Of a stretch of DNA of 64,000 nucleotides, positions 20,619-63,399 are shown in pieces. Below the pieces are notes generated by a model. It saw only the letters and a program-made list of their open reading frames with translations, searched no databases and was not told the DNA's origin. Source of the stretch: an uncultured cyanobacterium. Its GTDB lineage: Bacteria; Cyanobacteriota; Cyanobacteriia; PCC-9006; JAAUQQ01. The stretch's first letter is position 1, and the number at the start of each line of letters is the position of its first letter. Location of the stretch: NCBI GenBank assembly GCA_963718615.1, contig OY970368.1, positions 3,488,001-3,552,000 on the forward strand. The letters are read 5' to 3'. The position numbers and the translations under genes were made by a program.

Positions 20619-20620
20619 AA

Positions 20621-21007: not shown

Positions 21008-21010
21008 GGT

Positions 21011-21334: not shown

Positions 21335-21341
21335 GGTTCTA

Positions 21342-44760: not shown

Positions 44761-45214
44761 AGGTCAACGGTCCGACCACGCCATTCACATTGGAAACCGG
44801 CTTGCCCGTCCGCTGGAGCAAAATTACCGCTTCGCGGGTGCGGGGACCAAAGAGACCGTCGATCGCCCCATGATACAACCGCTGACGCTGGAGGCCCTGC
44901 TGGAGTTGACGGACGCTTTTGCCGCGATCGCCCTGGCGCAAAAACCGACCTGGCTGGCGATCGGGCCATTCCCACTCGGCAGCCAAAGCCCGCCACGTAT
45001 CTGGGTTGACGATGCCATCGGCTTCAACGGGTTGATGGGCCTGGAAATTCAGCACTGCGATCTCAGTCAGCGGTCCAAAAATACCATCGACAGCTCCCAG
45101 TTCGTCCAGATCCGCCCCGGCTCTGGCCAGGAGCAAATGCTGTAAATCAAACACTTCAGGGCCACGGGAGCCTTGCTTGAGGACGGTGATTGTGATGACT
45201 GCCATGGGTTTCAC
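44723..45214 (-). CDS. Tandem peptidoglycan-binding domain protein
   Basis: LKQGSRG..DGIFGP and LRQGDRG..DGLFGP. Confidence 0.85.
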
Positions 45215-45368
45215 TCCTGAGAGAGGACTTTATCCTTTTCCATTCCATTGTCGTCAATTCCACGGAGTTTGGCCTCACCCGTAAGGGTACTTTTCAGCCT
45301 TTGCCATTTCCCCAAAACACGGCTAGAGTCATGGCCGTTCAAAATCGCGGAATCCCCATTCAGGTTTT

Positions 45369-45875
45369 ATGGCTCAGCTTGCTCCCCTCCAACTTGAAGA
45401 CGGCACGATGATTTATATCGAAGCCGAAGCAATGATTGCTGAACCCCTGGCGATCGCCTCCCCTTCTGAGCCCCTCACTCCCGAACCCACCCGAGGTGAC
45501 GGTGGCGGCGCAGCCAAAGGCTGGAACAGTAGCCATCAAACCAGTAACCAGCACACCAGTAACCAGCCAACAGCCAGCCGTACCGCCGCAACGAATCGCC
45601 TAGCCTCCTTGGAAACCACTATCCAGTCCTACACCCGCTCCGCCGTCCAGGCAGTCCAGCAAGTCGCCACGGGGAACATCAACAAAGTCACACTGGAATT
45701 CGGGGTCAAAATCAGCGGTGAAGCGGGCATTCCGTACATCACCAAGGGCACGGCAGAAAGCAATCTGAAGGTGACGGTGGAATGTGCCTTTGCCAAGCTC
45801 AATGCCGAGAACTTGCATGCCGAGAACTTGCATGCCGAGAACTTGAATGCCGAGAACCTGAATACCGAGGCATAG
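45369..45875 (+). CDS. CU044_2847/Trypco1-like protein
   Basis: LEDG..IYIE...KVTLEFGVKISGEAG..ITKGTAESNLKVTV. Confidence 0.78.
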   Translation: MAQLAPLQLEDGTMIYIEAEAMIAEPLAIASPSEPLTPEPTRGDGGGAAKGWNSSHQTSNQHTSNQPTASRTAATNRLASLETTIQSYTRSAVQAVQQVATGNINKVTLEFGVKISGEAGIPYITKGTAESNLKVTVECAFAKLNAENLHAENLHAENLNAENLNTEA

Positions 45876-47175: not shown

Positions 47176-47355
47176 AGGGGAGGAACCGGAAAAGGGCCGG
47201 AAAAATGTGGTTTGAGGCAAGATAGACGGCTCAAGCTGCCGGGAGATTCCACCATTTCACCGGAATTCCATCGCGTCCACCTCGATACCCTCCATTTCTA
47301 TGCTACGATTAGCGATCGTGACTTACTGAACGATCTCAAACCCGCGTTTATATCC

Positions 47356-47625
47356 ATGGCTCTCACCCAACAGCAGAAGCAAGAACTCATGAGCGACTAC
47401 CAGGTCCACGAGACGGACACTGGTTCGGCAGACTTGCAGGTTGCGATGCTCTCGCACCGCATTAAGCAGCTCAGTGAGCACCTCCAGAAGAACAAAAAAG
47501 ACTACGCTTCTCGCCAAGGGCTGCTGAAGATGATTGGTCGCCGTAAGCGTCTGCTGGGCTATATCCAAAAGCATGACGTCGAGCGTTACCGGTCGTTGAT
47601 TCAGAAGCTCGGCATTCGCGGTTAA
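47356..47625 (+). CDS. rpsO: 30S ribosomal protein S15
   Basis: HETDTGSADLQVA..DYASRQGLL..LGIRG; 89 aa from ATG 47356. Confidence 0.98.
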   Translation: MALTQQQKQELMSDYQVHETDTGSADLQVAMLSHRIKQLSEHLQKNKKDYASRQGLLKMIGRRKRLLGYIQKHDVERYRSLIQKLGIRG

Positions 47626-47629
47626 ACCC

Positions 47630-48148
47630 ATGGCGGACCCCAAATCTCTCAGTGATGAGCAGGAGCGCCTCCCCTTTGAGCCCAGCAAGGGCCGTAAAAA
47701 GAAGGAGGCGACTCAGGCTCATAAACCCAAGGCGGAGCCCCGGCGAGGCAGTCCTGAAGACAAGGCCAGTCGGCGCAGTGCTTCGCGGGCATCCAATCGC
47801 CCCAAATCTCTGGAGGAGACTCGCATTCCAGATGCCGTGGGCAAGCGGATGATCACGCGCATGGCCTTATTTTCTGGGATCCCGACTTTTCTCGGTGTTG
47901 CGACCTTTTTCGCGGCTTATTTTGTCATCACCCAAGGAATTTTTGAAATTCCCAACGTGTTTGTGGTCTCCACCAGCATGCTTTTCTTCGGCCTGGGCGT
48001 GGTTGGTTTGAGTTATGGGGTCCTCTCCGCTTCCTGGGAAGAAGAGGTCTCCGGAACAGCCCTGGGAGCCCAGGAATTTGCCTTAAACTTTAGTCGCTTG
48101 AGGGGCGCTTGGCGCGAGGCCCGCGAGGCTAAAGCTAAAAAGGATTGA
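47630..48148 (+). CDS. pam68: PAM68-family (DUF3464) PSII assembly factor
   Basis: IPDAVGKRM..GIPT..GLSYGVLSASWE; typical position after rpsO. Confidence 0.9.
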   Translation: MADPKSLSDEQERLPFEPSKGRKKKEATQAHKPKAEPRRGSPEDKASRRSASRASNRPKSLEETRIPDAVGKRMITRMALFSGIPTFLGVATFFAAYFVITQGIFEIPNVFVVSTSMLFFGLGVVGLSYGVLSASWEEEVSGTALGAQEFALNFSRLRGAWREAREAKAKKD

Positions 48149-48288
48149 AGTGCTAACTGAATGCTGATTGAAGCACTGCTGCCTGTTGCCCGCCATGGGT
48201 GACCCGCTACGTTTCGGCTTCTGCATTTTGATAGATGCTCGGCTCTGGGAGCTACCGCTAGGATCAGGCGGTTCATCGCTGAGGGTGC

Positions 48289-50259
48289 TTGAATCCGCCT
48301 GTGACTTCTTTTGTGCCGTCCGGTAGCCTGCTCTTCCTGGCCATCGTTGCGAGCCTGCTGCTGTCGATCGCCTTTCAGCTTCTTCTTGCAAATTTGGGGC
48401 TAGCCGTAGGGTTAACCCTGGCGAAGCCAGCCCTTGATTTGGCCTCTGCCCAGCCGGAATCCCCGTCTAGCACATCTCAGTCCCGTGGCTCTCGTGCTCC
48501 AGAGTCTCAGTCTCCAGATAACGGTTTAGCCGGTCTAGGGGCATGGGCGGGACTCGGCCTTTGTTTGGGTCTGGATATGGTTTTGTTTGCCTCTTGTTTC
48601 CTGACCGTGCGGTTGAGCTTTTTGCAGGCACCCGTGTTGGGTGCAACGCTGGGTCTGATTACCTGGGCAGCCCATCTGCTGCTGTTATTTTGGGTGAGTA
48701 CTACAGCGGTCGGGTCTACACTGGAGGTGTTGCTAGGGGGGACGACAGCAGGGATTCGTAAGCTACTCCGTTGGGTTCGGCAAACCCCGAAGGATCTGGA
48801 TGACAAGAGCGATACTGAAAAGAGCGATACTGAAAAGAGCGATGGCGATCGCCTCAATCAAATCCAAAACCAGCTCAACAGGGCACTCCATCAGTTGGAG
48901 GAGATGCAAGCTCAAATGCGGGATTCGCTCCACCCCATTGCATCGCCACAAATTTCATCGCCACAAATTTCATCACCGCAAATTTCACCAGACCTGTCGA
49001 CCAGCGCATCGCAACCAGATCCTGCATCCGATGCACTCTTGCCCCAACTACGAGAAAAGTTGACGACTGTTTTAGACAACCTGGATTTTGATCTCAAGGC
49101 GAAGCTGCAAGAAGCCCTCGCTGAAATCGATCCCTCCGACTGGGATTTAGCAACGCTGTGGCAGCAGATGCGCTCCCCAGGCAAACTAGAGGATTCAGAA
49201 CCAGAGAGCCCAGAACCAGAGAGCCCAAAACCAGATTCGCCTCGCCTGTCTGACGCGGCCATTGCCGATGTTAATACCCAGCTCCAAAGTTACTTTCGAT
49301 ATACCAACCGTAAAAAGTTAACCCCCGAGGGCGTGACCCAAAAGCTAGAAGTGGTCTTGACGCCTTGGATTGCCACGGATAACTTCCCGGATAACTTCAC
49401 GGATAACTTAGCGATCGCCCGCAGCGCCATAAGCGCCATCGATCAAGCAGCACTCAAAACAATTTTGACCCATCGTAATAGCCTGTCGCCCCGCCGAGTC
49501 CAGAAACTCCTCGCTCCATTGCAACAGGAACAACCTCTCAAGGCGAATCAAACGGCCCCTGTCCCGGAGCCAGGGACGGCAATCGAGTCCAAAGCGCTCA
49601 AAGAACCCAAAGCGCTCACAGCGTTCAAAGCCAACACGCTGCATCCAGTTGTAGAAACTCTGCAATCGCTGTTTCAAGACTTAGATTTGGGCGTAGAGGT
49701 CAGTCAACTGTCCTGGGCTGAGGTGCAAAGTGTGCTGTGGGAATTTTCTTCTGAAAGTTTCGAGGCTGAAAATCTAGATCTAGAAATTTTGCAAGAACGC
49801 TGGGGGCGATCGCTCCACCATTGGACCCAAACAGCACAGGGTGCGGTTCAAACCTTAGAAGATCAGCTTAAAGCCACAGCTCAAGAATCGACTGCACTTT
49901 TAAGTCATTTGCCAGAACATCCGCTTCATCAACTGCAAAACCAGGTCCAAAGCTTACTCGGAGGCACCCTGGCAGAGCTACAAAATCTTCCCCATTTGCC
50001 CCAAGCGGCTGCCGAACAATTGCAAACGATGCTGACTCAAACCCAGTCCCAAATCGTCAGGCAGATTGAGCAAGCCCAGGCCGGTCTGGAAACTCAAGCG
50101 CAGCAGTTACAAACCCAGGCGATCGCCCAAGCTGAAGCTGTTCGACATTTGGCGGCGATCGCGGCCTGGTGGCTGTTTGCCCTGGTCTTTTCTTCGGGCT
50201 GCACGGCAGCTCTAGCCGGTTACTGGGCAGCTTTACAAAATGCCTCTTGCCTCGTCTGA
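48289..50259 (+). CDS. Hypothetical membrane protein with long helical soluble region
   Basis: N-terminal TMs (AFQLLLANLGLAVG), C-terminal AAWWLF TM; 656-aa ORF. Confidence 0.72.
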   Translation: MNPPVTSFVPSGSLLFLAIVASLLLSIAFQLLLANLGLAVGLTLAKPALDLASAQPESPSSTSQSRGSRAPESQSPDNGLAGLGAWAGLGLCLGLDMVLFASCFLTVRLSFLQAPVLGATLGLITWAAHLLLLFWVSTTAVGSTLEVLLGGTTAGIRKLLRWVRQTPKDLDDKSDTEKSDTEKSDGDRLNQIQNQLNRALHQLEEMQAQMRDSLHPIASPQISSPQISSPQISPDLSTSASQPDPASDALLPQLREKLTTVLDNLDFDLKAKLQEALAEIDPSDWDLATLWQQMRSPGKLEDSEPESPEPESPKPDSPRLSDAAIADVNTQLQSYFRYTNRKKLTPEGVTQKLEVVLTPWIATDNFPDNFTDNLAIARSAISAIDQAALKTILTHRNSLSPRRVQKLLAPLQQEQPLKANQTAPVPEPGTAIESKALKEPKALTAFKANTLHPVVETLQSLFQDLDLGVEVSQLSWAEVQSVLWEFSSESFEAENLDLEILQERWGRSLHHWTQTAQGAVQTLEDQLKATAQESTALLSHLPEHPLHQLQNQVQSLLGGTLAELQNLPHLPQAAAEQLQTMLTQTQSQIVRQIEQAQAGLETQAQQLQTQAIAQAEAVRHLAAIAAWWLFALVFSSGCTAALAGYWAALQNASCLV

Positions 50260-50526
50260 TCCAAGTTTATAAGTTGGTAGTGCTTTTGTGTCAAAATAGA
50301 TTGATCTTCCCCTCAAGAAGTAGACAGAGAAGTTAAGCTGCGACGGATTGATTGAGAGAGAGCCAGTATTGCGCCTCAAATTGAACAGGGGGAGAGAAAA
50401 CCAATGGGTGAGGCTTGACGCTGACCTAAGGCTGCCTCTAATGCCGTCAACAGGGTTAAACGGAAATCCGTGCAAAGATTTCTGAAGAAAAAGCATTCTA
50501 GGTCTTCCTATCCAGGGAATTACGGA

Positions 50527-50637
50527 TATTATGCAGAATAGTGTTCCGTCTCATCTCCCTCATTCGGGATTATGCGGAATTGGGTTTCTGCATAATCTTC
50601 TGTGTTGGGTATTATGCAGAATCCGATTCCATCTAAT
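50527..50637. promoter_or_regulatory. Three evenly spaced imperfect palindromes (ATTATGCRGAA arms); possible recombinase res/att site or operator
   Basis: Arms start at 50528, 50569 and 50611; central site ATTATGCGGAA-N6-TTCTGCATAAT. Confidence 0.55.
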
Positions 50638-50879
50638 GGCTGTTTTGGATAAATAGGCCGGACAGATCCTATATAATGCCCCATCTCAAGGAATTAGACA
50701 GAATTAATTCAGTTTAATTAACCATTGTATGCGCGATTCGAAGTCGTTCGGGGGAGCTGGAAAGAACTCCAAAATTCTTTCCCAGCTAGTGTTCAATCGG
50801 ATGTCCACCTCGGAATGTTCAACTAGTAATGAGAGGGAAGAATCAGCAGATTATCCGCTTGCGACAAGGACAATGTCAG

Positions 50880-51110
50880 CTATGTGGGAGTCTCTTTTCA
50901 ACAGAGAACTGCTGCATGTTCATCACAATCTGCCGCGTCGTCTAGGAGGGACTAAGCATGCTTCCAATTTTATGGCACTCCATCGAGTTTGCCATCAACA
51001 ATTGCATCGTTGAGCCATAAATTTTGCTTGATTTGTGTACAGTACAAGTTGTACGCGCGGTTCTAAGGAGAGAGGGGAGGCTATATATGAAACCTATCCC
51101 TTTATCCAAC
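50880..51110 (+). mobile_element. Degenerate group II intron 3' remnant
   Basis: HNH fragment HVHH..GG..LHRVCHQQLH, then domain V-like 34-mer (51030-51063) and domain VI ending ATCCAAC. Confidence 0.82.
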
Positions 51111-51221
51111 GACTATTGGTATTTACTTCTAACAACCTGCGAAGAATTTTTTTCTTGAAGGATTAGGTTGAATACCATTGCTCTTAGATACAAAATCTAA
51201 ACGAATCTGAAGGAGTCTAAA

Positions 51222-52580
51222 ATGCCAGTTGTAAAAGTGCCTGAAGCTTCACTCTCCTATTATCTGATCGCTTTCGACAAAGACGGAAAAGAGCGATCTG
51301 AGTCGGATGGCTTCCTGTGCCAACAGATATTGGATGTTTTGGTGAGTGAGCCCATCACGGATGTGTTTTTGATTAGTCATGGTTGGCTAGGAGATGTGCC
51401 TGCAGCGAAGAGACAATATAACGAATGGATCAGAGCAATGGTAGACAGTGAAGATGCTCAAAAAGTAAAAGCATCACATCCTGACTTTAAGCCCTTGATG
51501 ATCGGTCTTCACTGGCCTAGTAAACCCTATGGAAATGAAGACTTAAATGCATCTTTTTCGTTTGATTTGGCAGAACCACAAGCCAATGACATGATCGAAA
51601 ACTATGCAACTGAAGTCTCAGACACACAGGCTACTCGGGATGCATTTAAAGAGATTATTGCCGCAGAAAACAAGCTGCGACATGCTTACCAAACAATCCT
51701 TCGTGAAGCTTACGCGAGTGATGGTGCTAACCATTCAGAAGAGTGGGAACAGGCCGAGCCTTTGCTAAAAAACGCACAACTATCAAAAACTCGAGACAAC
51801 GCCAGCAAAAGCAACGTAAGTTTGGGGGATGATGTAGCTTTTGGTCTGGAAGACAACTTCATGGATGCCATCTCAGACTTCGATTTCAAAGATGCTCTTC
51901 TAAAACTACCGCGAATGGCTTCTTACTGGAAGATGAAAAACTTGGCCCGTACCATAGGCCAAAGCGGTGGGTTTGACTTGTTGCAAAAGCTTCAGCAAAA
52001 AGCGAACGAGAAGGTACGTTTTCATCTTATAGGACACAGTTTTGGCACCATTGTTGTGTCCTCGATGCTTAGAGGCCCCGAAAAAGACAGTCAGCTTGTA
52101 CGCCCGGTCAACTCGCTTAGTCTGATACAGGGAGCCGTATCCCTGTGGTCGTATTGTCCTCAAATTCCTAAAAGGGATAATCTTGAGGGCTATTTTTACT
52201 CTATCATTCGCGATAAGAAAGTTGCAGGCCCTATTATCACAACACTCTCAAAATATGATAAAGCGGTAAGACTCATGTATCCTCTCGCTAGTCATGCTGG
52301 CTTACTAGGCGGAGCAGACATTGACTTTGACGTGAACTTTGGTGATTCAGCCTATCCTATCGTAGGTGGAATCGGAACTTATGGTATTCAAGGCAACGGT
52401 CTACTAGACGTTGAAGATATCCTAATGAAGTCCCAAGACAAAGCCTATCGATTCAAGCCCGGTTTTATTTACAACTTGAATAGTGACAACTTTATTCAGG
52501 ATGGAACAAAAGATGCTCACTGTGCTATCGCTAAGCCCGAAGTCGCACATGCTGTCTGGTCCGCTGCATTTAGCGTTTAG
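51222..52580 (+). CDS. Alpha/beta hydrolase
   Basis: SHGW, GLHWPS, HLIGHSFG, Asp (YDKA), C-terminal AH; AAGGAG RBS. Confidence 0.85.
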   Translation: MPVVKVPEASLSYYLIAFDKDGKERSESDGFLCQQILDVLVSEPITDVFLISHGWLGDVPAAKRQYNEWIRAMVDSEDAQKVKASHPDFKPLMIGLHWPSKPYGNEDLNASFSFDLAEPQANDMIENYATEVSDTQATRDAFKEIIAAENKLRHAYQTILREAYASDGANHSEEWEQAEPLLKNAQLSKTRDNASKSNVSLGDDVAFGLEDNFMDAISDFDFKDALLKLPRMASYWKMKNLARTIGQSGGFDLLQKLQQKANEKVRFHLIGHSFGTIVVSSMLRGPEKDSQLVRPVNSLSLIQGAVSLWSYCPQIPKRDNLEGYFYSIIRDKKVAGPIITTLSKYDKAVRLMYPLASHAGLLGGADIDFDVNFGDSAYPIVGGIGTYGIQGNGLLDVEDILMKSQDKAYRFKPGFIYNLNSDNFIQDGTKDAHCAIAKPEVAHAVWSAAFSV

Positions 52581-52664
52581 CTTCATCTTGCCAGCAAGTA
52601 TCTAGGCAAAAAGTATCGAGTCGAAAAATATCCATTTGATGTCCATCTTTCTCCAGAACTAGCT

Positions 52665-54368
52665 ATGGTTGAAGAGAAAATTTATTTCAACGGAATCAAT
52701 GGCAGCACAGGCGAATACCTATTTCCCCCGCTGACTGCCGAGCAGCTTGCGCAAGTTGCGAGAGGTGAAGAATTTGAATCTTCAGAAATCACAGAGTTAA
52801 AACAAAAGAACCGGCGGGTCAAAGGTCTTGAGGTTGATTTCGCCCCTAAAGAAGGAATAGATCCTAAAGACCTTGCCCAAACAGGGTGGGGCGTCATTTT
52901 CTCTTATGATTCAGATCCGGCCATTAAACAAGCGCTTCAAGTGCTTTTGGATCATCGTAAGAGACAGGCTACTCAGAGACATGATCACTACTATCAAGAA
53001 TATGTCGGGGTTAAAGGATATCGACCTGGCGAATCAAAAAATCAGTTTTTAGCTCGGCACAAGGTTGGCCCTGGGCCGGCTGACCCAGATAAAATGCCCT
53101 ATTATTTGCTGATTGTAGGTGATCCAGACACGATTCCCTTTCGCTTTCAGCATCAGCTAGATGTGCAATATGCAGTAGGGCGTATCCATTTTGATACCCC
53201 AGCTGAATATGCTCAGTATGCCCGCAGTGTTGTCAAAGTAGAAACGGAAAATGTTGTTTTGGCTCGTCGAGCGCATTTCTTTGGGGTGCAAACAGAAGAT
53301 GATCCAGCAACTCAGCTCAGCGCTCAAAAACTAGTACAGCCACTTGCACAGTGGATGATTGAGGATCAAGGTGGAAGCAATTGGAGCGTAGAAACTACAC
53401 TAGGTAAAGCGGCGACAAAGGAGACCTTAGAAACGCTATTGGGCGGATCACAGACGCCAGCACTGCTGTTTACAGCGAGTCATGGCATGGGGTTTAGTAA
53501 CGGAGATCGCCGACAGATCTCCAAGCAGGGGGCTATTCTTTGTCAGGATTGGCCAGGGCCTAAGGCGTGGGAGACTAGACCTATCCCCGAAGATTATTAC
53601 TTTTCTTGCAATGATATTAGTGATAATGCCCGTCTTTTGGGGCTCATCTCTTTTCACTTTGCTTGCTATAGTGCCGGAACGCCTCAGTTCGATGAATTTT
53701 CCCATAGAGAAGCGTCAGAACAACGGCCAGAAATCGCACCACACGCCTTTATTTCAGCTTTGTCAAAGCGGTTGTTGAGTCATCCTCAAGGTGGTGCCCT
53801 CGCGGTGATTGGTCACATTGAACGAGCTTGGGGATGTTCGTTTGTGTGGGAAGATACTGGCGCTCAGTTAGCTGTTTTTGAGAGTACCTTAAAGCGGTTA
53901 CTCGAAGGTCACACCGTAGGCTCAGCGGTTGAGTATTTCAACGAGCGCTATGCAGAATTATCTTCTGATTTGAGTAGTGAGTTAGAAGAAATTAGATATG
54001 GTAAGACGTTTGAAGCCTCAGCCTTATCGAGTATGTGGACCGCTAACAATGATGCTCGGGGCTATGCGATTATCGGCGATCCGGCTGTAAAGCTTCCTAT
54101 GGGTGGCTCTACAGAGGATAGTTCTGTAGGCGAACGCTCTGTACGTCCAATAATAGGACCTTCACCGCAAGATTTCTCGGGTGCGATCATAACACCGACT
54201 CAACCCAGTGAATCGCTTTCCTCCGTCGAACAAGCACGAAACGATCTGAACCAAACCCTCGATCCCGTGATTAGCGCAATTCAACAAGGTCCTGTAGAGC
54301 GCAGCGTGCTACAGCAAGCACTATCAGCGACTATCAAACTTCTAGAAGCTCTAAATGAACAGCTCTAA
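52665..54368 (+). CDS. Gingipain-like C25 cysteine peptidase (caspase fold)
   Basis: YLLIVGD, AVGRI, TASHG, FACYS dyad, IIGDPA. Confidence 0.85.
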   Translation: MVEEKIYFNGINGSTGEYLFPPLTAEQLAQVARGEEFESSEITELKQKNRRVKGLEVDFAPKEGIDPKDLAQTGWGVIFSYDSDPAIKQALQVLLDHRKRQATQRHDHYYQEYVGVKGYRPGESKNQFLARHKVGPGPADPDKMPYYLLIVGDPDTIPFRFQHQLDVQYAVGRIHFDTPAEYAQYARSVVKVETENVVLARRAHFFGVQTEDDPATQLSAQKLVQPLAQWMIEDQGGSNWSVETTLGKAATKETLETLLGGSQTPALLFTASHGMGFSNGDRRQISKQGAILCQDWPGPKAWETRPIPEDYYFSCNDISDNARLLGLISFHFACYSAGTPQFDEFSHREASEQRPEIAPHAFISALSKRLLSHPQGGALAVIGHIERAWGCSFVWEDTGAQLAVFESTLKRLLEGHTVGSAVEYFNERYAELSSDLSSELEEIRYGKTFEASALSSMWTANNDARGYAIIGDPAVKLPMGGSTEDSSVGERSVRPIIGPSPQDFSGAIITPTQPSESLSSVEQARNDLNQTLDPVISAIQQGPVERSVLQQALSATIKLLEALNEQL

Positions 54369-54486
54369 AAATATGATTTGATATACCGTTAACAGAGAAA
54401 GTTCAGGGCACTTTGTGGTTCTGAGCTTTCTTGTATAAAAATCTGTATGAAATCTCAAAATCAATTCGTAAGGGAGCCGCGTTTAG

Positions 54487-57400
54487 ATGTCCGTATTTGA
54501 GATTACCATTCAGCGTAAAGTAGCAGACTACTATCCTATTGTCGCAAAATACAGTAGTCGTCCAGATGAGCCTGTCGAATTTTTACCTGTCTGGTCAGAA
54601 GGGAAGCTGCGACTTTCTCAAACAGACCATGACCATCTCTTCAGCCTGATAGGCCAACCCAGAGAGTATGGAACTTATTTAGGGCAATTACTCTTTAAAG
54701 ATAGTATTGGCAATGCTTTCGCAAGCGCCAGAGCAAGAAGTCCAGAGTGTTTGCGCCTGTTGCTGTTTCTTGAAACTAAAGAATCTGAGCTACAGACGCT
54801 GCGATGGGAGCGTCTATGTGCTCGTGGAGATGGCAATGAATGGAATTTCCTAAGGTGCGATCAGCGAGTTCCCTATTCGATTTATGTACCTTCTCTGGCA
54901 GCTCGTCGGTTTCCGCCTATTGGCCGATATGGTTTAAGGGCGCTAGTGTTAGTGGCCTCGCCCGAAAATTCAGAAGCATATGGACTCGCTGCTTTCGACG
55001 TTGAGGAGACGGTTGCAAGTGTTTGCGCCTCTTTGGGAAGTGTTCACTGTGATGTATTAGCTGATGTTGATGGTGCACTCGGACTGCCCACCATAGGCAA
55101 CCTCATGACCCATCTTACGAAAGAAACCTATACGTTTCTCCATATTGTTTGTCACGGGCGACAACGAGAGGATGTCAGTCTTTTTTTATCAGATGAACAT
55201 AACCAGGTTACGTATGTCAAGGGCAAAGAGTTAATTGAAAAGCTGAAAGATATAGAAGGTCTGCCTCACTTGACGTTCCTTTGCACCTGTGAAAGCGCCA
55301 AAGTTGATGATGATGGTGCCTTTGGTGGGTTCGCAGGGCAGTTAGTCAGAGATTTGGGAATGCCTGCAGTGGTGGCGATGACGGAGAAAATAACTGTCCG
55401 TACAGCCAAGAGGTTAGTCCAGGCGTTCTATCAACGGTTGATAGAAAATGGCGAAGTTGATTTAGCCTTAGATCAAGCAACCGCTTCAGTCAGTAGCCGA
55501 GATGATGTGTTGGTACCTGCTTTGTTCAGCCGTCTGGGCGGACGGCCCTTGTTTAGCGATACCCTTAATCGCTTACTGACACCGCGAGAAATTGATAACG
55601 GGTTAAAACGCTTGAAACGTCTACTAGAAGAGCGAGCACCTGTGCTAATTGAAGAGTTTGATATGCAGCAAAAGGCGCTAAGAGCAGAAGATAATGGGGT
55701 AATAGAGATATCCTCGCTGAATGAGTCTGCTCGCAATAAAGCACAGGCCGCTCTAGACGAACTGAATAAAATCTGTGGTGAAGTAGTGGGTATCAGCTTT
55801 AATGCTGTTGCCCTAAACAAAAAAGTATCGCAATACGATCCGCGCTGTCCGTTTCCTGGTTTAAGCCCTTTCACACTGCAAGATAAAGAATTCTTCTGCG
55901 GGCGTGAAGCGCTGGTCGATAGCTTAAAAACAAAACTGGAGAAGTCTCCCTTTTTAGTATTAGTAGGCCCCTCTGGAAGCGGTAAGTCATCGCTGGTATT
56001 GGCAGGCCTGGTTCCAGCCTTACAGAAAGCTCAACCTAACTTAAAATTGATTTATATAGTCTTGCGTAGCAATCCACTCCAGCAGCTAGAAGATTGTCTT
56101 TCAGAGGTGAAAGACCTCCCTTTTATATTAGTCCTAGAGGCGTTCGAGTTGCTATCTACGCTTTCTCTAGCTCCCGAAAAACAGAAAGAGTTTATCGAAA
56201 GACTGCTAGAGGTTGTTGATTCGCATCAGTCACAGCCTAAAGTTGTATTTACGGTGAGAAGAGAATTTTTGACTGACAGTATTCACCACAACACTCTATC
56301 AAACAGACAGATATCCGTTGAGAAAATTGAGCCAATGACTGCGGCAGAGCTGCGACTGGCTATGGAACAACAGGCTGCAAAGGTTGGCCTTAAATTTGAG
56401 GTTGGCCTGAGCAATACTATTTTAGATGATATAGAGGAAGAGCCTGGCTCAATGCCGCTTTTGCAACATGCGTTGAATCTGTTGTGGCAGAAGCGTCATG
56501 GGCAGTGGCTCATCAACAGCGAATATCAAAAATTTGGAGGTGTTAAAAAAGCGATCGCGAGCACTGCTGATAATTTCTATGAAAAGCTCTCTGAAGGAGA
56601 GCAAGCGCGAATGAAAAATATTTTTATTCGCCTGACGCGCCTAGATCCCGATGCTACAACGGGAAAAGATAGTCAAGATACCCGGCATCGGCGAGTTGCT
56701 TTGTCGGAATTAGTGCTGGCCGAAGGTGACCCGGAAAAGAGCCTGGTTCAAACCCAAGCACTTGTGAATAACTTAGCCGGAGACGCGGTGCGGTTAGTTC
56801 GTATAGAGATGTCGCAAGAGGGTAGTAATCATAAAATCGGCAGTGATGTGCAAGAAGTCGTAATGGCTCACAAAGCTTTGATCCACGACTGGTCCAAGCT
56901 AAGCCAATGGCTAGAAGAAAACCGAAGTTACTATCAACGTAGAGAAAAACTTAGCGAAGACGTCAGGCATTGGAGAAAGAATAAATGTCGAGCAGAAGAT
57001 CTGATTTCTCAACAAAAAACACTGGATGCAGCCAAGGAGCTAGGACGCCTTGGCTTTTTAAACGATGCAGAAGCAGAATGTGTAGAGAAATCACAACAAG
57101 CGCAGTTAAGAAAGTCTAGAGCGTATACGATCGGGGTGACAGGCGTTGCTGTGCTGCTGGCGGGTGTTTCTGTTTTTGCTTGCCGACAGCAAAAAGTCGC
57201 TGTTGAACAGAAAGGAATTGCTGAGATAGGCAAACAGATCGCTCAGCTAAAGGAACAGTCGGCGAGAGCTTCTAGCTGGATTTCTGAGGGTAAGTCTGCA
57301 CCGGGTCTAATGTTGTCTTTGGGGACACTCAGTCAAAGTGTTGAGAATGATCAGTATCCACCTGAGGTTGAGCTAAATGCCCAAGAGTCAGTGATAGATG

Positions 57401-59460
57401 CTGTACAACGTGCCCGTGAGAAGAATGTTTTGGAAGGGCACGAAAACAGCGTAAAGGCGATTGCCTACGATTCTAAAAATGACTACATTGTTACTGGAGG
57501 TGAGGACAATAGCTTAAAAGTTTGGGATGCTAAAACAGGAAAACTGTTAACAGCCAGAGTAAAGGCACACGATGATGCAATCTACACCGTTGTGTTTAGT
57601 CAGGATGGAAAACATCTCGTGAGCGCTGGAAAAGACAAAACATTGAACGTTTGGACGATTGAGCCGAGCGATGGCGATAGCCTAGCTAATAGGCAGACTC
57701 TTGACTCGATTAAGCTCTCGTTGAGAAACCGTATTCAGGGAGGCCATACTCAGCCAATACGTGCGGTTGCATTTAGTCCTGAGGGCGATCGTTTTGTCAG
57801 TGCCAGTGATGATCAAACATTACAACTCTGGAACGTTAAGTCAGGTAAGCCGATTGGTGAACGAATGAGAGGGCATACAAGTATTGTTTGGGCCGTAGCC
57901 ATTAGCCCTGATGGTACGCAGATTGCCAGTGGAAGTGTTGATAGAGCGATTAAAGTCTGGGATGGAAAGACCGGAGAGCTAACGTTTACAATCCCATTTG
58001 CGCATGAAGATAGCATATTTTCTATTGCTTTTAGCCCGGACAGCAAACGCATTGTCAGCGGCAGTGGGGACAGAAGTATTCGGGTGTGGGATGCCCGAAC
58101 CGGAGCTCCCATTGGATTTCCGCTACTCGGCCACGATGGTAAAATATATTCTGTGGCATTTATGCCCAATAATCAGACTATTGTAAGTACGGGCAGCGAT
58201 CGCACCATTCGTTTTTGGCATCCTGAAACTGCAACAGAAACGGGCAAAATTGTAGAAGCCCATAGTAGCTTAATCTGGGGACTTGCTTTAATGAATAACG
58301 GCAAGGAAATGGCGAGCGTCGGATCTGATAAAAAAATTCGGCTGTGGGATATCAACAACGATTTACCACTAGGTCAACCCCAGCGAACGCCTCACACGAA
58401 AGATATTTTGTCGATTGCGATCAGTCGTGATGGTGATCGAATCGTTAGCGTGGGTGAAGATACCAAGCTAATGATGTGGGATGTCTACACTCAAAAGCTT
58501 CTCTGGAAAATGCAAAACGTTCATGATGCGCCCATTCAATCAGTTGCTTTTAGCCCAACAGAAGCAAAGTTTGTCACTGCTAGCAGCGACGGCACCCTAA
58601 AGTTGTGGGATGCAACCGCTCAAAAAAACAGCATTTGGAGAACAAAGTCTAATCCAAGTCTTACCCGTAACCAGCGAGATATTTATACTGTAGCGTTTGC
58701 GCCAGATGGTAAAACCGTTGTCAGCGGCGGCAGAGATGGAAAACTAAGAATATGGGACGTAAGTACTGGCGATCAGAAAGTTGAATGGATTGCAGCCAAT
58801 GCAAAAAGCCCTATTCTTTCTGTTGCAGTGAGTCCCGATGGAAAATATATTGCGAGTGCTGGTGCTGATCACATTATTACGCTGCTGGATATGCATACAG
58901 GAGAGGTGATACAGCGTTTTCGCGGACATACTCAAGATATTTGGGCGATCGCATTCAGCCCGGATGGAAAATTGTTGGTTAGCGGCGGCAAGGACGACAC
59001 GCTGCGACTTTGGCAGATAGAAAAAGGCCAACAGATAGGGAAAGAACTCAAGGGTCACACGAATGATATTTCGACTGTCGCATTTAGCCCAACGGGTAAA
59101 CAAATTGCTAGCGGAAGCTTTGATAAAACCATACGCCTATGGGATATCCAAAACATTGAACAGGTAAAACCTTATGGACCACCCCTTATAGGCCATTTAG
59201 AAAGTATATGGTCTGTTCAGTTTATGCCAGATGGAAAGTCTATTGTCAGCGCCAGCGCAGATCTCACCTTGCGTAGATGGCCGAGTCACTGGTCTCAGTG
59301 GTCCAAAATGGCTTGCGAACGTTTAGAGAATCATCAGCTAATGAGTGACTCTCAGGAAAGTGCAAATATCGACAAAGATTTAGCAGAAATCTCTGGGGCG
59401 GCCAAAGAAGCCTGCGATCGCAAGTTTTGGCAGATAAAAGAGCGTGTCTCTATGCCGTAA
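54487..59460 (+). CDS. CHAT - nSTAND1-type NTPase - TM - WD40 protein
   Basis: LRWE, HIVCHG, LCTCES; CPFPGL, GPSGSGKSS, MPLLQHAL; hydrophobic segment; about 14 diverged WD40. Confidence 0.92.
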   Translation: MSVFEITIQRKVADYYPIVAKYSSRPDEPVEFLPVWSEGKLRLSQTDHDHLFSLIGQPREYGTYLGQLLFKDSIGNAFASARARSPECLRLLLFLETKESELQTLRWERLCARGDGNEWNFLRCDQRVPYSIYVPSLAARRFPPIGRYGLRALVLVASPENSEAYGLAAFDVEETVASVCASLGSVHCDVLADVDGALGLPTIGNLMTHLTKETYTFLHIVCHGRQREDVSLFLSDEHNQVTYVKGKELIEKLKDIEGLPHLTFLCTCESAKVDDDGAFGGFAGQLVRDLGMPAVVAMTEKITVRTAKRLVQAFYQRLIENGEVDLALDQATASVSSRDDVLVPALFSRLGGRPLFSDTLNRLLTPREIDNGLKRLKRLLEERAPVLIEEFDMQQKALRAEDNGVIEISSLNESARNKAQAALDELNKICGEVVGISFNAVALNKKVSQYDPRCPFPGLSPFTLQDKEFFCGREALVDSLKTKLEKSPFLVLVGPSGSGKSSLVLAGLVPALQKAQPNLKLIYIVLRSNPLQQLEDCLSEVKDLPFILVLEAFELLSTLSLAPEKQKEFIERLLEVVDSHQSQPKVVFTVRREFLTDSIHHNTLSNRQISVEKIEPMTAAELRLAMEQQAAKVGLKFEVGLSNTILDDIEEEPGSMPLLQHALNLLWQKRHGQWLINSEYQKFGGVKKAIASTADNFYEKLSEGEQARMKNIFIRLTRLDPDATTGKDSQDTRHRRVALSELVLAEGDPEKSLVQTQALVNNLAGDAVRLVRIEMSQEGSNHKIGSDVQEVVMAHKALIHDWSKLSQWLEENRSYYQRREKLSEDVRHWRKNKCRAEDLISQQKTLDAAKELGRLGFLNDAEAECVEKSQQAQLRKSRAYTIGVTGVAVLLAGVSVFACRQQKVAVEQKGIAEIGKQIAQLKEQSARASSWISEGKSAPGLMLSLGTLSQSVENDQYPPEVELNAQESVIDAVQRAREKNVLEGHENSVKAIAYDSKNDYIVTGGEDNSLKVWDAKTGKLLTARVKAHDDAIYTVVFSQDGKHLVSAGKDKTLNVWTIEPSDGDSLANRQTLDSIKLSLRNRIQGGHTQPIRAVAFSPEGDRFVSASDDQTLQLWNVKSGKPIGERMRGHTSIVWAVAISPDGTQIASGSVDRAIKVWDGKTGELTFTIPFAHEDSIFSIAFSPDSKRIVSGSGDRSIRVWDARTGAPIGFPLLGHDGKIYSVAFMPNNQTIVSTGSDRTIRFWHPETATETGKIVEAHSSLIWGLALMNNGKEMASVGSDKKIRLWDINNDLPLGQPQRTPHTKDILSIAISRDGDRIVSVGEDTKLMMWDVYTQKLLWKMQNVHDAPIQSVAFSPTEAKFVTASSDGTLKLWDATAQKNSIWRTKSNPSLTRNQRDIYTVAFAPDGKTVVSGGRDGKLRIWDVSTGDQKVEWIAANAKSPILSVAVSPDGKYIASAGADHIITLLDMHTGEVIQRFRGHTQDIWAIAFSPDGKLLVSGGKDDTLRLWQIEKGQQIGKELKGHTNDISTVAFSPTGKQIASGSFDKTIRLWDIQNIEQVKPYGPPLIGHLESIWSVQFMPDGKSIVSASADLTLRRWPSHWSQWSKMACERLENHQLMSDSQESANIDKDLAEISGAAKEACDRKFWQIKERVSMP

Positions 59461-59475
59461 CAGACAGCCTCAACC

Positions 59476-62400
59476 CTATTCCCAGGCATCTAGAGCATTG
59501 ACCCAATAATTGAGTAAGGCAATAACCTGGGATCGCCTAGCTTCAAAAGTCGCAGCGATCCAAATTAATAGCAATCCTAAAACAATGCCAATGGCCCACA
59601 AAAATAGCGAATAATCCTGAACAAATCGCCAAACCTGAATCAAAACCCTAAGCATAAACGTGAAAGTACCGATGTACAAAAAGGCGCGAATGCGAAGGGC
59701 AAGCCCCGCAAAGATGAACAGGAGGCTAAAGGCGATCGCCCCTAACCCCGCCCCAAAGGGACTCAAGTTTCCTAGGCCAATTTCTGCCTGATACATAGCC
59801 GTAAAGCAAACAATACTGGTTCCCAAAACCCGGAGCCAGTGACGCTGCTGGCGATCGGATTGCGCCTGGAGTTGAGGTTCAACCTGAGCAAAGTAGAGCA
59901 AACTACCGCCGCCTAGGAGTGCGTAAACCAAGGGTTCTGTGATGCTAAATTGATGCAAAATTCGCAGCATGGCCCAGTCGAGCAACACAATGCTGAGGTA
60001 GCTCAGCCGGACCTGACGGCGGTGCGTTGCCAAGCCTGCGTAGAAAGCGGCGACAATGAGTAATGCCTGAATTCTAATATCCCAGCTTGTCAGTAAGACG
60101 GTGATCATCGGCAACAACATCGCCCAGCGTCGCCAGGGGCGCAGATTCCAACCGAGGCGTTGCCACGGCAACCCGTAAAGCAACGCCGCGATCGGGCAGG
60201 CGATCGCCCCGGCCCATGCCAATAGGACCGGCCAAGGACACCCTAAATGGATCCCGTAGCCTAAGGCGGATAGCAGTTGTATAATCCCCAGATCCGTCCA
60301 GCCGGAGCCCGCCTGCCTGGCCTGCCCTAGGGCATGGAGTCCAAGCAGCACCAATCCTCCCATCCAAAGCAGGCCCCCCGTTCCACTCAAGGGCAACAGC
60401 AGGGCCAGCAGGGCCAAGCCGCTGCCGATCCCCCAGTGAATCTGGGCAAAGACCCGCAGTTCTCCTGTTTCCCAGCGCAGGTAGGGACGAAGCCAGCGGG
60501 AGCAGAGGCGATCGCCCCAGGCAATTCCCACCGCCAGTAGTGCTAACAACATGACCCCATCGCCCGCAGCACCTCCAGGAGATCGGGAGAGTTGGTAGAT
60601 CAAGAGTTCGTAGAACCCAATCGAGCTGAGAATGAGGCCAATGTAACTAAAGGGTTTGAGCGTCGGTCGCCGCCGACCGACGCCCACGCCAACAGCCGCA
60701 GCCGCTAGGGTCAACAAGCCTGTGGTAGCCGTGAAATGGTGATGACCGATGAGTCCTCCCAGAATGGCATAGAGGATCGGCACACTGTGCCCAGCGCCTA
60801 GAAACGCGGGCTGTGGACAATCGGGACGCGAATGGCGCTGGATTCGGGCCTGCCAAAAATCACCCAGCCAAAAATCACCTAAGCGTTGCAAGAGCACCGC
60901 AAAGCTGAGATAGGCGATCGCCAATCCAGTCGCCCCTTGTCCTGCAAGGTGTACAACGACGGCCATGAGTGAAGCTAAGGCGATCGCCCCTCCATGGGCA
61001 TTCCAATTATTCGGAGCTCGCCAACAACTTAAAGCTAAAGCCAGGGTAGGCAAAAACGCCACCCCAAAATAAAGCGTATCCTCCTCAAAAAAGCCAAAGA
61101 ATGAACTGTCAAAATAGGCAAACAGATTGAAGATGAGCAAACCCAATTGAAGCGGGATAAAGAGGGCGATCGCCCAACCATTAGCAGCCCGTCGATAGAG
61201 GCCAATCAGTTCAGATTGGCGAGTTTGCATTGCGGTCCAAAAGAACCACAGTCCAGCGGTTTCAATGGCCATCAACAAAAGCAGCGATTCCCCATTCCCA
61301 CCCAGCGCAAGGCTCCGCTCCACCCCATACCAACCGGTGGCTAATCCAAACCCGATGGCGATCGCCGCCACGGGAAGTTTGCGCAATTGTAAACTGTTGA
61401 TTCCGGTTAAAAGGGCTCCCAGCCCATAGCCCACAATGCGGTAGGGGGATAATCCTATGCTCATGACCTGGGCAAAAATCACGGCAAACACTGCAAGGGT
61501 TTGCGTCGTGCGAGGGCTCAAGCAACGAGGGGATCGAGCCATTAAAACCATAAAGGCGGGTGCAATCCACCAGGCCATTCCCAGGGCTGACCTCGGCGAA
61601 GCCAATGGTTCGACTAGCAACAAAACATAGCTCAAGCCTGCAAAGATAAAACCGAAGACCCAGGCACTGCGTCGCCAGAGAACAGGTCTTGCCGTTACCG
61701 TCTCGAACCGGTCCGCGAACAGCACCTCAAATATGGACTCCGGCAACACACTGAAGCTCCATTCTATCGCCATGGCACCGAGGGCAATGAATCCCCAAAT
61801 TAGGCGAGGGAGCCCTGACCAACCGATATGAATCCAGCTAAAAATAGCGCCCCAGACCAAGGCTTGAATGAGATAGACAACCCAATTCGGAACCGCTGGC
61901 CGCCGTCGAATTGAAACGCCTAACAGGATCGCAGAAAGCGTCAGATTGAGGGCGCGAATCAACGGATTAGCAACGCTAAAAAGGGTCAGCCCACAACCCA
62001 AGACAAAGGCAAGAAAATCAGCTTGGGTTGCCAGTTGAATCAAGTTTTGTCGCCGTAATCGTCGACTCCAAAGGGCAAACAGGATCAAATAGGGGAACAC
62101 CGTCACACCCACGATCGCAAACGGCATGCCTGCATCTCCCGCGATCGCCCCAATCTTCTCGACCCAGCCATCCCGCACCGTCAGTGGCACAAATCGTCGC
62201 GCCAACCAAATCCCTTGCAAGCCCACCAAAAAGATCAGCGTCAGATCCAGCGGTAGCCGCAACCGTTTTAGGCGATCGCCCAACAATCCCAACGCCAGCA
62301 CCGTCACGACCACCGGCTGCCCCGGCGGATCCACCCTCAGCGACACCGCCCAGCCCAAAACCATTAAGCCGTATCCTGCTGCCAACCACAAACCTTGGGT

Positions 62401-63399
62401 GGGTTGACGACGTGCGCGCCAAGCCAACACCGCACCACAGAGGCCCAGGGCTAATCCCAACTGCCAGAGGGGGATCTGAGCTGCCAGCAGCGCCCGTCCC
62501 ACCAGCAACAATGCGCCAAACAACAAATTTAAGGTGACAAACGAAGGGGTAGAACCTGAGTTAACGGCTGAATTGGCCCCCTGCGGATCTGCCGATTCCC
62601 CCTGGGCCTCCGCTTCCGAGTCAGCATAGACCGTGGCGATCGCCGTTCCCACCATGCCCGTATAGGTCGCCAACAGGGGCCAAATCGCCACCGCCCAGCC
62701 CCAATGGAGCAGACTGAGGGCGATCGCATTCGTCAAGACTAGCTTGGGATAAGGGGTTTGGTGAAGTCGCGGGCGCAATAGTTTCAGCAGGACAAGTGTG
62801 AGGGCGATCGCCCCTACGCCCGCAACGACCCAGCCCAGGGGCCAGCGCCAAAGTCCAAATCCATCCATGGCCCAAAAGTTAATCGGCACCAGCAACAACG
62901 TCACCCGCTGGAGCATTTTGGCCGTTAGCACCAGATTAGCCTGTCGTCCGGCCCAGAGTCCCGCCCCCCAAAAGGCCAGGGTATAGGTCAGCAGAACTAG
63001 ATATTGCCCCACAGCGGAGAAATTTTGCCACTGGCTGGCGGCCAAGACCGCTGAGGACACAACAACCAGAAAAACCCCTAGAAACAGCAACCACAGTACG
63101 CTGACTTCTTCCATCAAGGATTGCAGCCAGCGATTCAGCGGTGCGACGGGCCGGGGCAGAGAAGGCGCTAGAGCGATTGGCTCGGAAACGACTTTGGAGA
63201 CAACTACAGGAACGATCTCCTGAACTTCCTGTTCTGGCAACGGGCAACTGAGCTGTTCTTGAGCGATTTTTTGGACGAGAAAGTCAGAAATTAGGCCCAA
63301 CTTAACCCAAGCATCCAAGCCCTCCAGGAGATGAGGATCAGAGGCACGGGCATGAACGGTGATGGCAATTGTTCGGTCGAGGGGAGAGGCCATGGGCAA
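59476..63399 (-). CDS. Large polytopic membrane protein (DUF2157-like)
   Basis: LDAWVKLGLI N-terminus, WLLFLGVFLVV, many TMs; 1307 aa. Confidence 0.78.
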   Translation of the reverse strand: MPMASPLDRTIAITVHARASDPHLLEGLDAWVKLGLISDFLVQKIAQEQLSCPLPEQEVQEIVPVVVSKVVSEPIALAPSLPRPVAPLNRWLQSLMEEVSVLWLLFLGVFLVVVSSAVLAASQWQNFSAVGQYLVLLTYTLAFWGAGLWAGRQANLVLTAKMLQRVTLLLVPINFWAMDGFGLWRWPLGWVVAGVGAIALTLVLLKLLRPRLHQTPYPKLVLTNAIALSLLHWGWAVAIWPLLATYTGMVGTAIATVYADSEAEAQGESADPQGANSAVNSGSTPSFVTLNLLFGALLLVGRALLAAQIPLWQLGLALGLCGAVLAWRARRQPTQGLWLAAGYGLMVLGWAVSLRVDPPGQPVVVTVLALGLLGDRLKRLRLPLDLTLIFLVGLQGIWLARRFVPLTVRDGWVEKIGAIAGDAGMPFAIVGVTVFPYLILFALWSRRLRRQNLIQLATQADFLAFVLGCGLTLFSVANPLIRALNLTLSAILLGVSIRRRPAVPNWVVYLIQALVWGAIFSWIHIGWSGLPRLIWGFIALGAMAIEWSFSVLPESIFEVLFADRFETVTARPVLWRRSAWVFGFIFAGLSYVLLLVEPLASPRSALGMAWWIAPAFMVLMARSPRCLSPRTTQTLAVFAVIFAQVMSIGLSPYRIVGYGLGALLTGINSLQLRKLPVAAIAIGFGLATGWYGVERSLALGGNGESLLLLMAIETAGLWFFWTAMQTRQSELIGLYRRAANGWAIALFIPLQLGLLIFNLFAYFDSSFFGFFEEDTLYFGVAFLPTLALALSCWRAPNNWNAHGGAIALASLMAVVVHLAGQGATGLAIAYLSFAVLLQRLGDFWLGDFWQARIQRHSRPDCPQPAFLGAGHSVPILYAILGGLIGHHHFTATTGLLTLAAAAVGVGVGRRRPTLKPFSYIGLILSSIGFYELLIYQLSRSPGGAAGDGVMLLALLAVGIAWGDRLCSRWLRPYLRWETGELRVFAQIHWGIGSGLALLALLLPLSGTGGLLWMGGLVLLGLHALGQARQAGSGWTDLGIIQLLSALGYGIHLGCPWPVLLAWAGAIACPIAALLYGLPWQRLGWNLRPWRRWAMLLPMITVLLTSWDIRIQALLIVAAFYAGLATHRRQVRLSYLSIVLLDWAMLRILHQFSITEPLVYALLGGGSLLYFAQVEPQLQAQSDRQQRHWLRVLGTSIVCFTAMYQAEIGLGNLSPFGAGLGAIAFSLLFIFAGLALRIRAFLYIGTFTFMLRVLIQVWRFVQDYSLFLWAIGIVLGLLLIWIAATFEARRSQVIALLNYWVNALDAWE

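Follow-up and report, generated by a model that had tools for sequence, protein, structure and literature searches.

The window analysed here is a stretch of 64,000 nucleotides from the genome of an uncultured cyanobacterium (assembly GCA_963718615.1, contig OY970368.1, positions 3,488,001 to 3,552,000). Between positions 51222 and 59460 it carries three intact, co-oriented open reading frames (ORFs) on the plus strand, spanning 8.2 kb, which encode an alpha/beta-hydrolase (P0001), a gingipain-like C25 cysteine peptidase (P0002) and a protein with CHAT, nSTAND1 and WD40 domains and a predicted transmembrane (TM) helix (P0003). The ORFs lie exactly where an earlier reading of the letters without database searches (the sequence-only reading) had placed them. 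We regard it as roughly evenly balanced between right and wrong that the three genes form a STAND-gated protease-effector conflict system which was acquired horizontally and most likely serves abortive-infection-type immunity. In such a system P0003 would be the sensor, with WD40 propellers, one membrane helix, and a cytoplasmic nSTAND1 NTPase carrying an N-terminal CHAT protease. The effector module would be the pair P0002-P0001, with the C25 peptidase docked on the alpha/beta-hydrolase. On firing of the sensor by its presumed trigger, the C25 peptidase would cut after F114 and after F207, within two V-S-F-(D/G) loops of the hydrolase, and these cuts would remove a 93-residue insert and free a lipase/phospholipase-like serine hydrolase (S273-D346-H433) to damage the cell, presumably by acting on lipid. 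The CHAT protease may prime the C25 peptidase or act in parallel with it.

Across the cyanobacteria the three genes stay together, and rearranged versions of the set exist on plasmids and in other phyla. When one genome per species was scanned, 80 loci with a C25 homolog (52-72% identity to P0002) were obtained from Cyanobacteria, Chloroflexota, Acidobacteriota, Planctomycetota, Proteobacteria and other groups. By tblastn, the hydrolase is present in 49 of the 80 loci and CHAT in 59. According to gene maps (tblastn in the case of L071), 45 of the 49 hydrolase loci have the hydrolase either fused to C25 or as its immediate neighbour, and a CHAT match was obtained in 41 of the same 49. Five of the eight CHAT misses have less than 400 bp of contig beyond C25 and one (L044) has a STAND gene cut by the contig end, leaving two real misses, L011 and L018. 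The sequence-only reading had offered to fall if the three genes were not conserved together; since they are, that ground for rejecting it is removed. The usual order in cyanobacteria is that of the window (hydrolase, C25, CHAT-nSTAND1-WD40), with the sensor gene convergent in Microcoleus and Oscillatoria. The loci of other phyla have a CHAT-SIR2 gene, a separate nSTAND1-WD40 or nSTAND1-TPR gene and C25, followed by the effector. We observed the fusion of CHAT to a SIR2-like domain (PF13289), instead of to a STAND sensor, outside cyanobacteria at L059:3125-5179, L062:2919-5003 and L060:32-628. Two loci (L077 and L080) have an nSTAND1-WD40 gene without a CHAT domain, followed by C25 and by a protein family that we call c3 and describe below; two others (L051 and L058) have C25 and c3 with no sensor nearby. 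In all four of these loci C25 is the only protease. A separate observation concerns plasmid p1 of Planktothrix agardhii (L083, 326-7167), in which, within the sensor gene, an IS1634 transposase separates the CHAT-nSTAND1 part from the WD40 part and a 224-aa protein with no Pfam match stands in the hydrolase's place before C25.

P0001 (452 aa; 51222..52580, plus strand) is the predicted effector, a zymogen licensed by a protease. Its model (predicted local distance difference test, pLDDT, 70.9) has an alpha/beta-hydrolase fold. No Pfam family scored above cut-off for P0001, and Foldseek with the model returned no match at E <= 0.001. A wide VIA search found alpha/beta hydrolases of a generic kind only: the best structural neighbour was Nir2 DDHD (9jyx_A; Z 12.8, root-mean-square deviation 5.0, 245 aligned), and lipases and phospholipases scored equally at about Z 12. 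In the ESM Atlas the closest clusters consist of Actinomycetota proteins 418-426 aa long (score 0.97), and DUF900 is annotated on 14% of one cluster. Homologs of P0001 number 1759, and a profile search extended these to 2701 representative clusters. The GHSFG nucleophile elbow (residues 271-275, with Ser273; 52032..52046, plus strand) is invariant in all 31 aligned sequences, as are an HG pair (residues 53-54) and the other two proposed triad residues, D346 (52257-52259, plus strand) and H433 (52518-52520, plus strand); the putative triad S273-D346-H433 is assigned from the fold. The model falls below pLDDT 50 at residues 110-119 and 166-228. A poorly conserved insert of 93 aa (residues 115-207; 51564..51842, plus strand) lies between the two candidate cleavage motifs described below and is predicted to be an inhibitory fragment. 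We liken it to the middle fragment of the LcHydrolase zymogen of Lysobacter capsici, which is excised after cutting at two R-G sites, between R and G (Evans et al. 2025, bioRxiv 10.1101/2025.11.14.688446). P0001 is thus likened to a protein kept inactive until cut by a protease, and it probably is one. The sequence-only reading had proposed a cytoplasmic GHSFG hydrolase with low-structure inserts. The elbow and the low structure stand, and the cytoplasmic location is suggested by inspection of the N-terminus only, where no hydrophobic leader is seen.

Two short motifs bracket the insert. Candidate cleavage motif 1, F112-S113-F114-D115 (51555..51566, plus strand; consensus V-S-F-D), is in a loop of pLDDT below 50, and candidate cleavage motif 2, V205-A206-F207-G208 (51834..51845, plus strand; consensus V-S-F-G), is within the low-confidence stretch 166-228. 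Among 120 homologs the columns of motif 1 hold V in 69, S in 107, F in 95 (Y in a further 9) and D in 91; those of motif 2 hold V in 89 (I in a further 18), S in 98, F in 111 and G in 75 (S in 32 and A in 9). Both motifs sit in hydrolase loops that are otherwise variable, and a four-residue pattern of this kind is expected about 0.03 times per 300 residues by a rough hand estimate. We infer that the two motifs are cleavage sites. The V-S-F motif is kept in a plasmid-borne hydrolase of Sinorhizobium (40% identity), occurs two to three times in the N-terminal half of c3, and is found in inter-domain linkers of polyproteins (P0242 at 598; P0339; P0355). S-F-G is kept in five of five C25-fused hydrolases. 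In CHAT-fused hydrolases V-S-F occurs in none of six, and (L/V)LG-type motifs are present at the corresponding loops. As a pattern in protein sequences, V-S-F-(D/G) is common to the hydrolase, the alternative effector and neighbouring lipoxygenases (see below), and its sharing among them is new here.

P0002 (567 aa; 52665..54368, plus strand), the predicted effector-licensing protease, matches Peptidase_C25 (PF01364) with E 9e-8 and 32.2 bits against a cut-off of 23, and Pfam found no further domain beside it. The top Foldseek matches of its model (pLDDT 84.2) are the gingipains Kgp (6i9a_A, E 2.7e-8) and RgpB (1cvr, E 9.2e-8), followed by separase and CHAT proteases; the RgpB pro/mature complex 4ief is also among the matches. 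The catalytic residues His273 (53481..53483) and Cys334 (53664-53666), both on the plus strand, are invariant in 40 of 40 aligned sequences, which argues for catalysis. Family profile, fold and His-Cys dyad all place P0002 in the C25 family. The architecture of the secreted gingipains is absent: inspection of the translation shows no hydrophobic leader, and the protein ends in a short two-helix C-terminal tail. Judged by its N-terminus only, P0002 would be cytoplasmic. An aromatic-then-small motif, D58-F59-A60 (52836..52844, plus strand), follows the N-terminal segment 1-57, in a loop of low confidence, and is possibly a processing site or a structural feature. We considered the conserved F59-A60 as a mark of cutting by CHAT and dropped this idea; the motif is kept in CHAT-less loci too, so it provides no evidence for CHAT cleavage of C25. 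In the candidate sites of the effector a Phe precedes the presumed scissile bond, and the specificity of P0002 is probably not for Arg/Lys.

The link between the C25 peptidase and the hydrolase is supported by gene adjacency, by natural fusions and by a predicted complex that passes its controls. Residues 1-480 of C25 modelled with the hydrolase gave a complex score of 0.70, and the best of three controls gave 0.00. The mark used for this score is reached by 58 of 80 solved complexes and by 2 of 110 mismatched pairs; as our own alignments were used, both counts apply only approximately. At least 55% of contacts agree among the runs, with a partner pLDDT of at least 68. The confident interface comprises C25 residues 13-14, 277-283 and 303-310 and hydrolase residues 342, 344, 386-401, 418 and 420, and in the model it looks like an exosite. 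A single open frame of 1077 aa at L075:5277-8510 consists of C25, a P/S/T linker and the hydrolase. Pfam scans of 26 long hits of the hydrolase profile gave two to four hydrolases fused to C25 (C25+hydrolase in P0255 and weakly in P0326, C25+NucA+hydrolase in P0269) and six hydrolase+CHAT fusions, with others fused to NucA or PLD. Also among the C25 fusions is P0244, a metagenomic protein whose single chain of 1707 aa combines C25 with a trypsin-like domain, NucA endonuclease and the hydrolase, and which has the look of a polyprotein made up of two proteases plus two effectors.

The hydrolase is one of several effectors that occupy this position. The family c3, of about 270 aa, stands in the hydrolase's place in 19 of the 80 loci, and the two never occur together. 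It has a hydrophobic, conserved C-terminal half, lies directly after C25 where the hydrolase is absent (for example L035:12004-12879 and L069:11974-12852) and is often followed by an ORF of 111-142 aa (c11). No Pfam family matches c3, and its Atlas matches all score below 0.8, none of them informative. An identification of c3 with EACC1 was rejected, since EACC1 has only some 115 aa and a single TM helix. The gene that follows C25 in L079 encodes a PF04185 phosphoesterase. C25, and not CHAT, adjoins or is fused to each effector type. The stand-alone C25 peptidase is therefore, in our gene maps, the constant partner of swapped effectors (the hydrolase, c3 and a phospholipase-C-like enzyme), a relationship that is new here.

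A lipoxygenase gene (PF00305) lies beside the module in 22 of the 80 loci, all of the hydrolase type and with varied positions. Three of the four lipoxygenases aligned, of the Nostocales type (L002:16942-19119, L016:6274-8361 and L028:5935-8169, minus strand), have an acidic N-terminal extension of about 300 aa with up to four V-S-F-(D/S)-type motifs. In contrast, the Microcoleus-type lipoxygenase of L033:5064-7310 has a different N-terminus without V-S-F motifs. The neighbouring lipoxygenase may be licensed by a protease. No lipoxygenase was matched in the window's own genome, but as the controls stayed silent too, this does not amount to absence.

P0003 (1657 aa; 54487..59460, plus strand) has the order CHAT-nSTAND1-TM-WD40 by Pfam and hydropathy, and all coordinates in this paragraph are on the plus strand. 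The caspase-fold CHAT domain (PF12770; E 7.9e-19, 68.6 bits against a cut-off of 24) covers residues 61-338 (54667..55500), and its dyad, His223 (55153-55155) and Cys268 (55288-55290), is invariant in 54 of 54 sequences. The nSTAND1 NTPase (PF20703; E 5.5e-84) covers residues 455-834 (55849..56988), matches positions 1-376 of the 379 in the profile and retains a Walker A motif, GPSGSGKSS (55966-55992), that is conserved among the 54 sequences. A WD40 beta-propeller region of 14 WD40 stretches (about residues 980-1605; 57424..59301; E 8.3e-133), with repeats visible in the DNA, is presumed to be the ligand sensor and is possibly outside the cytoplasm. A transmembrane helix is predicted between the NTPase and the WD40 repeats at residues 881-899 (57127..57183; Kyte-Doolittle 19-residue mean 2.13), and hydropathy gives a helix at the matching position in 43 of 52 CHAT-STAND proteins longer than 1000 aa; this predicted helix is also new here. 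The family Walker B block D-Q-F-E-E is absent from P0003, which at 56125..56160 reads ILVLEAFELLST against I-L-V-I-D-Q-F-E-E-L-F-T in the family. The changes are D551E, Q552A, E555L and F557S, each family residue being present in 52-53 of the 54 sequences (D551 and Q552 in 53, E555 in 52), and the resulting E-A-F-E-L is unique among the 54. Of 220 near-invariant columns, P0003 breaks with the family at 17, and 16 of these lie within residues 492-796 of the NTPase; its nearest relative does so at seven. The Walker B deviation may be an altered switch or decay.

Two distinct caspase-fold proteases with intact dyads, as the sequence-only reading had it, are thus encoded in one operon. That reading also had the CHAT, STAND and WD40 domains of the sensor right, and it overlooked both the predicted helix and the deviant Walker B. 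No trypsin or CARD domain was found in Pfam scans of P0001, P0002 and P0003, and a BLASTP search for an adaptor (EAD-like) common to the C25 tail and P0003 found nothing (best E 0.6). A further observation is an I-S-F motif, GISFNAVA (55789-55812; P0003 residues 435-442), in the CHAT-nSTAND1 linker, whose Phe is present in about 90% of the 54 relatives and which hints that P0003 itself may be processed.

The three genes lie on a low-GC, HIP1-poor island (50500..59470, borders approximate). Its GC fraction is 0.425-0.474 in every 1-kb window from 50500 to 59499, and the flanks (windows of 44000-50499 and 59500-62999) have 0.506-0.603. The 64,000 bases hold 88 copies of the HIP1 octamer GCGATCGC, where shuffled sequence gives 1.13 on average, with no site in 50163-56550 and four in 56551-59421; the AT-richer, HIP1-poor character claimed from the letters was therefore borne out. 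Of the 30 relatives that were searched, a single one yielded a C25 homolog (48% identity, same family), and the 23 same-class genomes yielded none. Copies occur on three plasmids. One of these, a conjugative plasmid of Sinorhizobium, carries the hydrolase (E 4e-98), C25 and a convergent CHAT/ATPase pair, and its module adjoins a PD-(D/E)XK nuclease and a WYL protein. Low GC, few HIP1 sites, the single C25 homolog among 30 relatives and the plasmid copies together lead us to horizontal acquisition, and the reading of the island as 8-9 kb of horizontally acquired DNA is sound. No flanking direct repeats and no tRNA were found at the island borders, no Rfam family was found in 49800-59800, and no P0002 relatives were found in the phage collection. 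At the low-GC left edge an ORF of 94 aa (50729-51013) has an HNH endonuclease motif at its end (PF01844, E 1e-6) and may be a mobile-element remnant. The right edge is abutted by a 1307-aa ORF on the minus strand (59476-63399) with host-like GC and no Pfam family. Elsewhere in the window a second stretch, 18668-27095 (8.4 kb), has zero HIP1 sites and may be another acquired island.

Several points weigh against the proposed system. The predicted complex puts no V-S-F loop in the C25 active site. Gingipains cleave after Arg or Lys, so a Phe at P1 would be unusual in the C25 family. Hydrolases that share a chain with a trypsin-like domain but not with C25 (P0249 and P0252) also carry V-S-F, so another protease class may read the motif. 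The tie near Z 12 among the fold neighbours of P0001 singles out no substrate, the transmembrane helix of P0003 is called from hydropathy alone, and the Walker B and other near-invariant departures suggest that the NTPase of P0003 may be impaired. PADLOC-DB 2.0, a check proposed by the sequence-only reading, has no family matching P0001 or P0002. P0003 had matches in PADLOC only to a generic repeat model and, weakly, to P-loop models, without a system-level name, and NCBIfam Avs4 scored 12.3 bits (E 0.017) against a cut-off of 1500.

The question then is how the two proteases are related to each other and to the effector. The sequence-only reading had joined them in an ordered relay, and in its fuller form this is a linear cascade in which the oligomerised sensor activates CHAT, CHAT removes a C25 pro-segment at about D58-F59-A60 (between F59 and A60), and the mature C25 cuts the hydrolase. 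Both dyads are intact and invariant, CHAT and C25 occur together in 59 of the 80 loci, and the conserved aromatic-then-small motif of C25 lies in its low-confidence loop after residues 1-57. Gingipains, moreover, are zymogens with an N-terminal prodomain, and the complex 4ief is among the P0002 fold matches. Multi-peptidase systems have been likened to caspase cascades (Kaur et al. 2020, PMC7159879). However, C25-effector modules exist without CHAT, as L077 and L080 have a sensor lacking it and L051 and L058 have no nearby sensor; the C25 motif is kept in such loci, so CHAT is not the reason for its conservation. The fusion of CHAT to a SIR2-like domain outside cyanobacteria fits a parallel effector arm, and in the two-protease gasdermin system of Lysobacter, the best studied of its kind in bacteria, the active site of the first protease is dispensable for defence (Wein et al. 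2023 preprint, PMC10312443), which by analogy counts against the relay. We regard the cascade as unlikely, and an ordered step from CHAT to C25 as not supported. A different assignment, that CHAT licenses the hydrolase and C25 serves as adaptor, as chaperone-like inhibitor or as a death protease that works independently and with broad specificity, could draw on the six hydrolase+CHAT fusions, on an interface that resembles an exosite and not a substrate loop in an active site, and on a caspase-like protease reported to defend without a dedicated effector (Evans et al. 2025). The same CHAT-fused hydrolases carry a different motif in place of V-S-F, though, and the invariant C25 dyad and the position of C25, not CHAT, beside or within every effector type make this assignment very improbable.

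It is also conceivable that the module is not for phage defence, or is non-functional here: a programmed-death, stress or kin-conflict module of filamentous bacteria, or a decaying passenger whose NTPase no longer switches. The unique E-A-F-E-L, the 17 departures against seven in the nearest relative, the lack of a PADLOC match and the Planktothrix plasmid copy split by IS1634 fit this explanation, and such systems have been tied to a multicellular habit, with phage defence not proven (Kaur et al. 2020). Against it, the three reading frames are intact over 8.2 kb, neither the catalytic residues nor Walker A has been lost, modules of the related hydrolase, MBL and EACC1 types were shown to defend or to respond to phage proteins (Evans et al. 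2025), and the setting is that of plasmids and islands, with nuclease and WYL genes alongside. We consider a non-defence or decayed module improbable. The STAND-gated protease-effector system thus remains our preferred reading, and the sequence-only interpretation fares well in part: its observation is confirmed, its zymogen and gene-conservation components are supported, the former by a protease-activated hydrolase mechanism demonstrated in a related pairing (Evans et al. 2025), and its ordered relay is not. A bolder extension of the preferred reading, which we put forward tentatively and with more doubt than belief, is a two-tier caspase-fold protease system, with a membrane-spanning STAND-CHAT sensor and a gingipain-like executioner. 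It would read the common V-S-F-(D/G) code and license interchangeable, mostly lipid-directed death effectors: the lipase-like hydrolase, c3, the phospholipase-C-like enzyme and the Nostocales lipoxygenase with its four-motif pro-region. The WD40 region would face the periplasm.

Bacterial suicide immunity of this style is known; what is new in the module is the arrangement. An alpha/beta hydrolase-CASPASE pairing was predicted, a caspase-superfamily domain in conflict systems being described as always accompanied by a neighbouring alpha/beta-hydrolase gene (Kaur et al. 2020), and proteolysis was shown to license effectors of four families, an alpha/beta hydrolase among them, in systems whose sensors are of the STAND and beta-transducin kinds (Evans et al. 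2025). With its fold, its nucleophile elbow and a gene beside that of a caspase-superfamily peptidase, P0001 resembles such protease-associated zymogens. Like the LcCaspase/LcHydrolase pair, the window has a caspase-fold cysteine protease gene beside a serine alpha/beta-hydrolase gene, two short identical motifs in loops around a removable middle piece (in P0001 a predicted one, the motifs alike in consensus), and a sensor of a type that in those systems includes STAND NTPases and beta-transducin (WD40) repeats. The differences are that the two R-G motifs are absent from P0001, whose loops hold V-S-F-D and V-S-F-G in the same two-site layout; that LcHydrolase has about 300 aa and P0001 452 aa; and that here a stand-alone gingipain-like C25 peptidase adjoins the hydrolase while a second caspase-fold protease, CHAT, is on the sensor.

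The type II gasdermin, or CARD-NLR-like, systems (Wein et al. 2023) share a STAND ATPase, two protease genes and one swappable effector gene, replaced in relatives by endonuclease or phospholipase genes. They differ in that their trypsin-like proteases are coupled by a CARD-like domain, neither of which was found in the window module, and in that the effector here is not a gasdermin. The gingipains Kgp and RgpB of Porphyromonas gingivalis (MEROPS C25) are the best fold match of P0002 (E 2.7e-8 to 7e-6, TM-score by target 0.48-0.51) and share its His-Cys dyad, and they too are made as zymogens with a prodomain. They have only 11-13% identity to P0002, which on inspection lacks the leader, the Ig-like domain and the secretion C-terminal domain, appears to be cytoplasmic and is operon-linked to a STAND sensor. 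The nSTAND1 family was named by Kaur et al. (2021, PMC8195603), in whose conflict systems, as in P0003, the nSTAND1 NTPase is flanked by a peptidase effector at the N-terminus and a repeat sensor at the C-terminus, and transmembrane STAND ATPases were named as sensors of protease-Pepco modules (Evans et al. 2025). Those systems are centred on FGS/lectin sensors or on EACC1, and the combination of CHAT-nSTAND1-TM-WD40 with a C25-effector pair is undescribed in the passages of these two papers dealing with them. The main text of Evans et al. (2025) has no mention of C25, gingipain, CHAT or lipoxygenase, and that of Kaur et al. (2020) none of C25, gingipain or lipoxygenase; the supplements of the papers cited here may list the architecture. 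Literature searches for C25/gingipain-like proteases in phage defence, and for lipoxygenase with caspase-like or STAND proteins in cyanobacteria, found nothing on point.

The licensing of death effectors by proteases, which has parallels in caspases, is becoming recognised as a main principle of bacterial immunity. To this principle the module adds a class of protease, the gingipain-like C25 peptidase, that is absent from the main texts searched, and a testable cleavage code common to unrelated effectors. Two caspase-fold proteases in one operon provide a natural case for the question of cascade versus parallel arms. The lipoxygenase link in relatives, if real, would tie bacterial immunity to enzymatic lipid peroxidation, and under the bolder extension the lipoxygenase case would be a protease-gated lipid-peroxidation (ferroptosis-like) arm of that immunity. 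For the genome studied here, the result is a stretch of 8-9 kb marked as acquired, with a sensor that is possibly altered.

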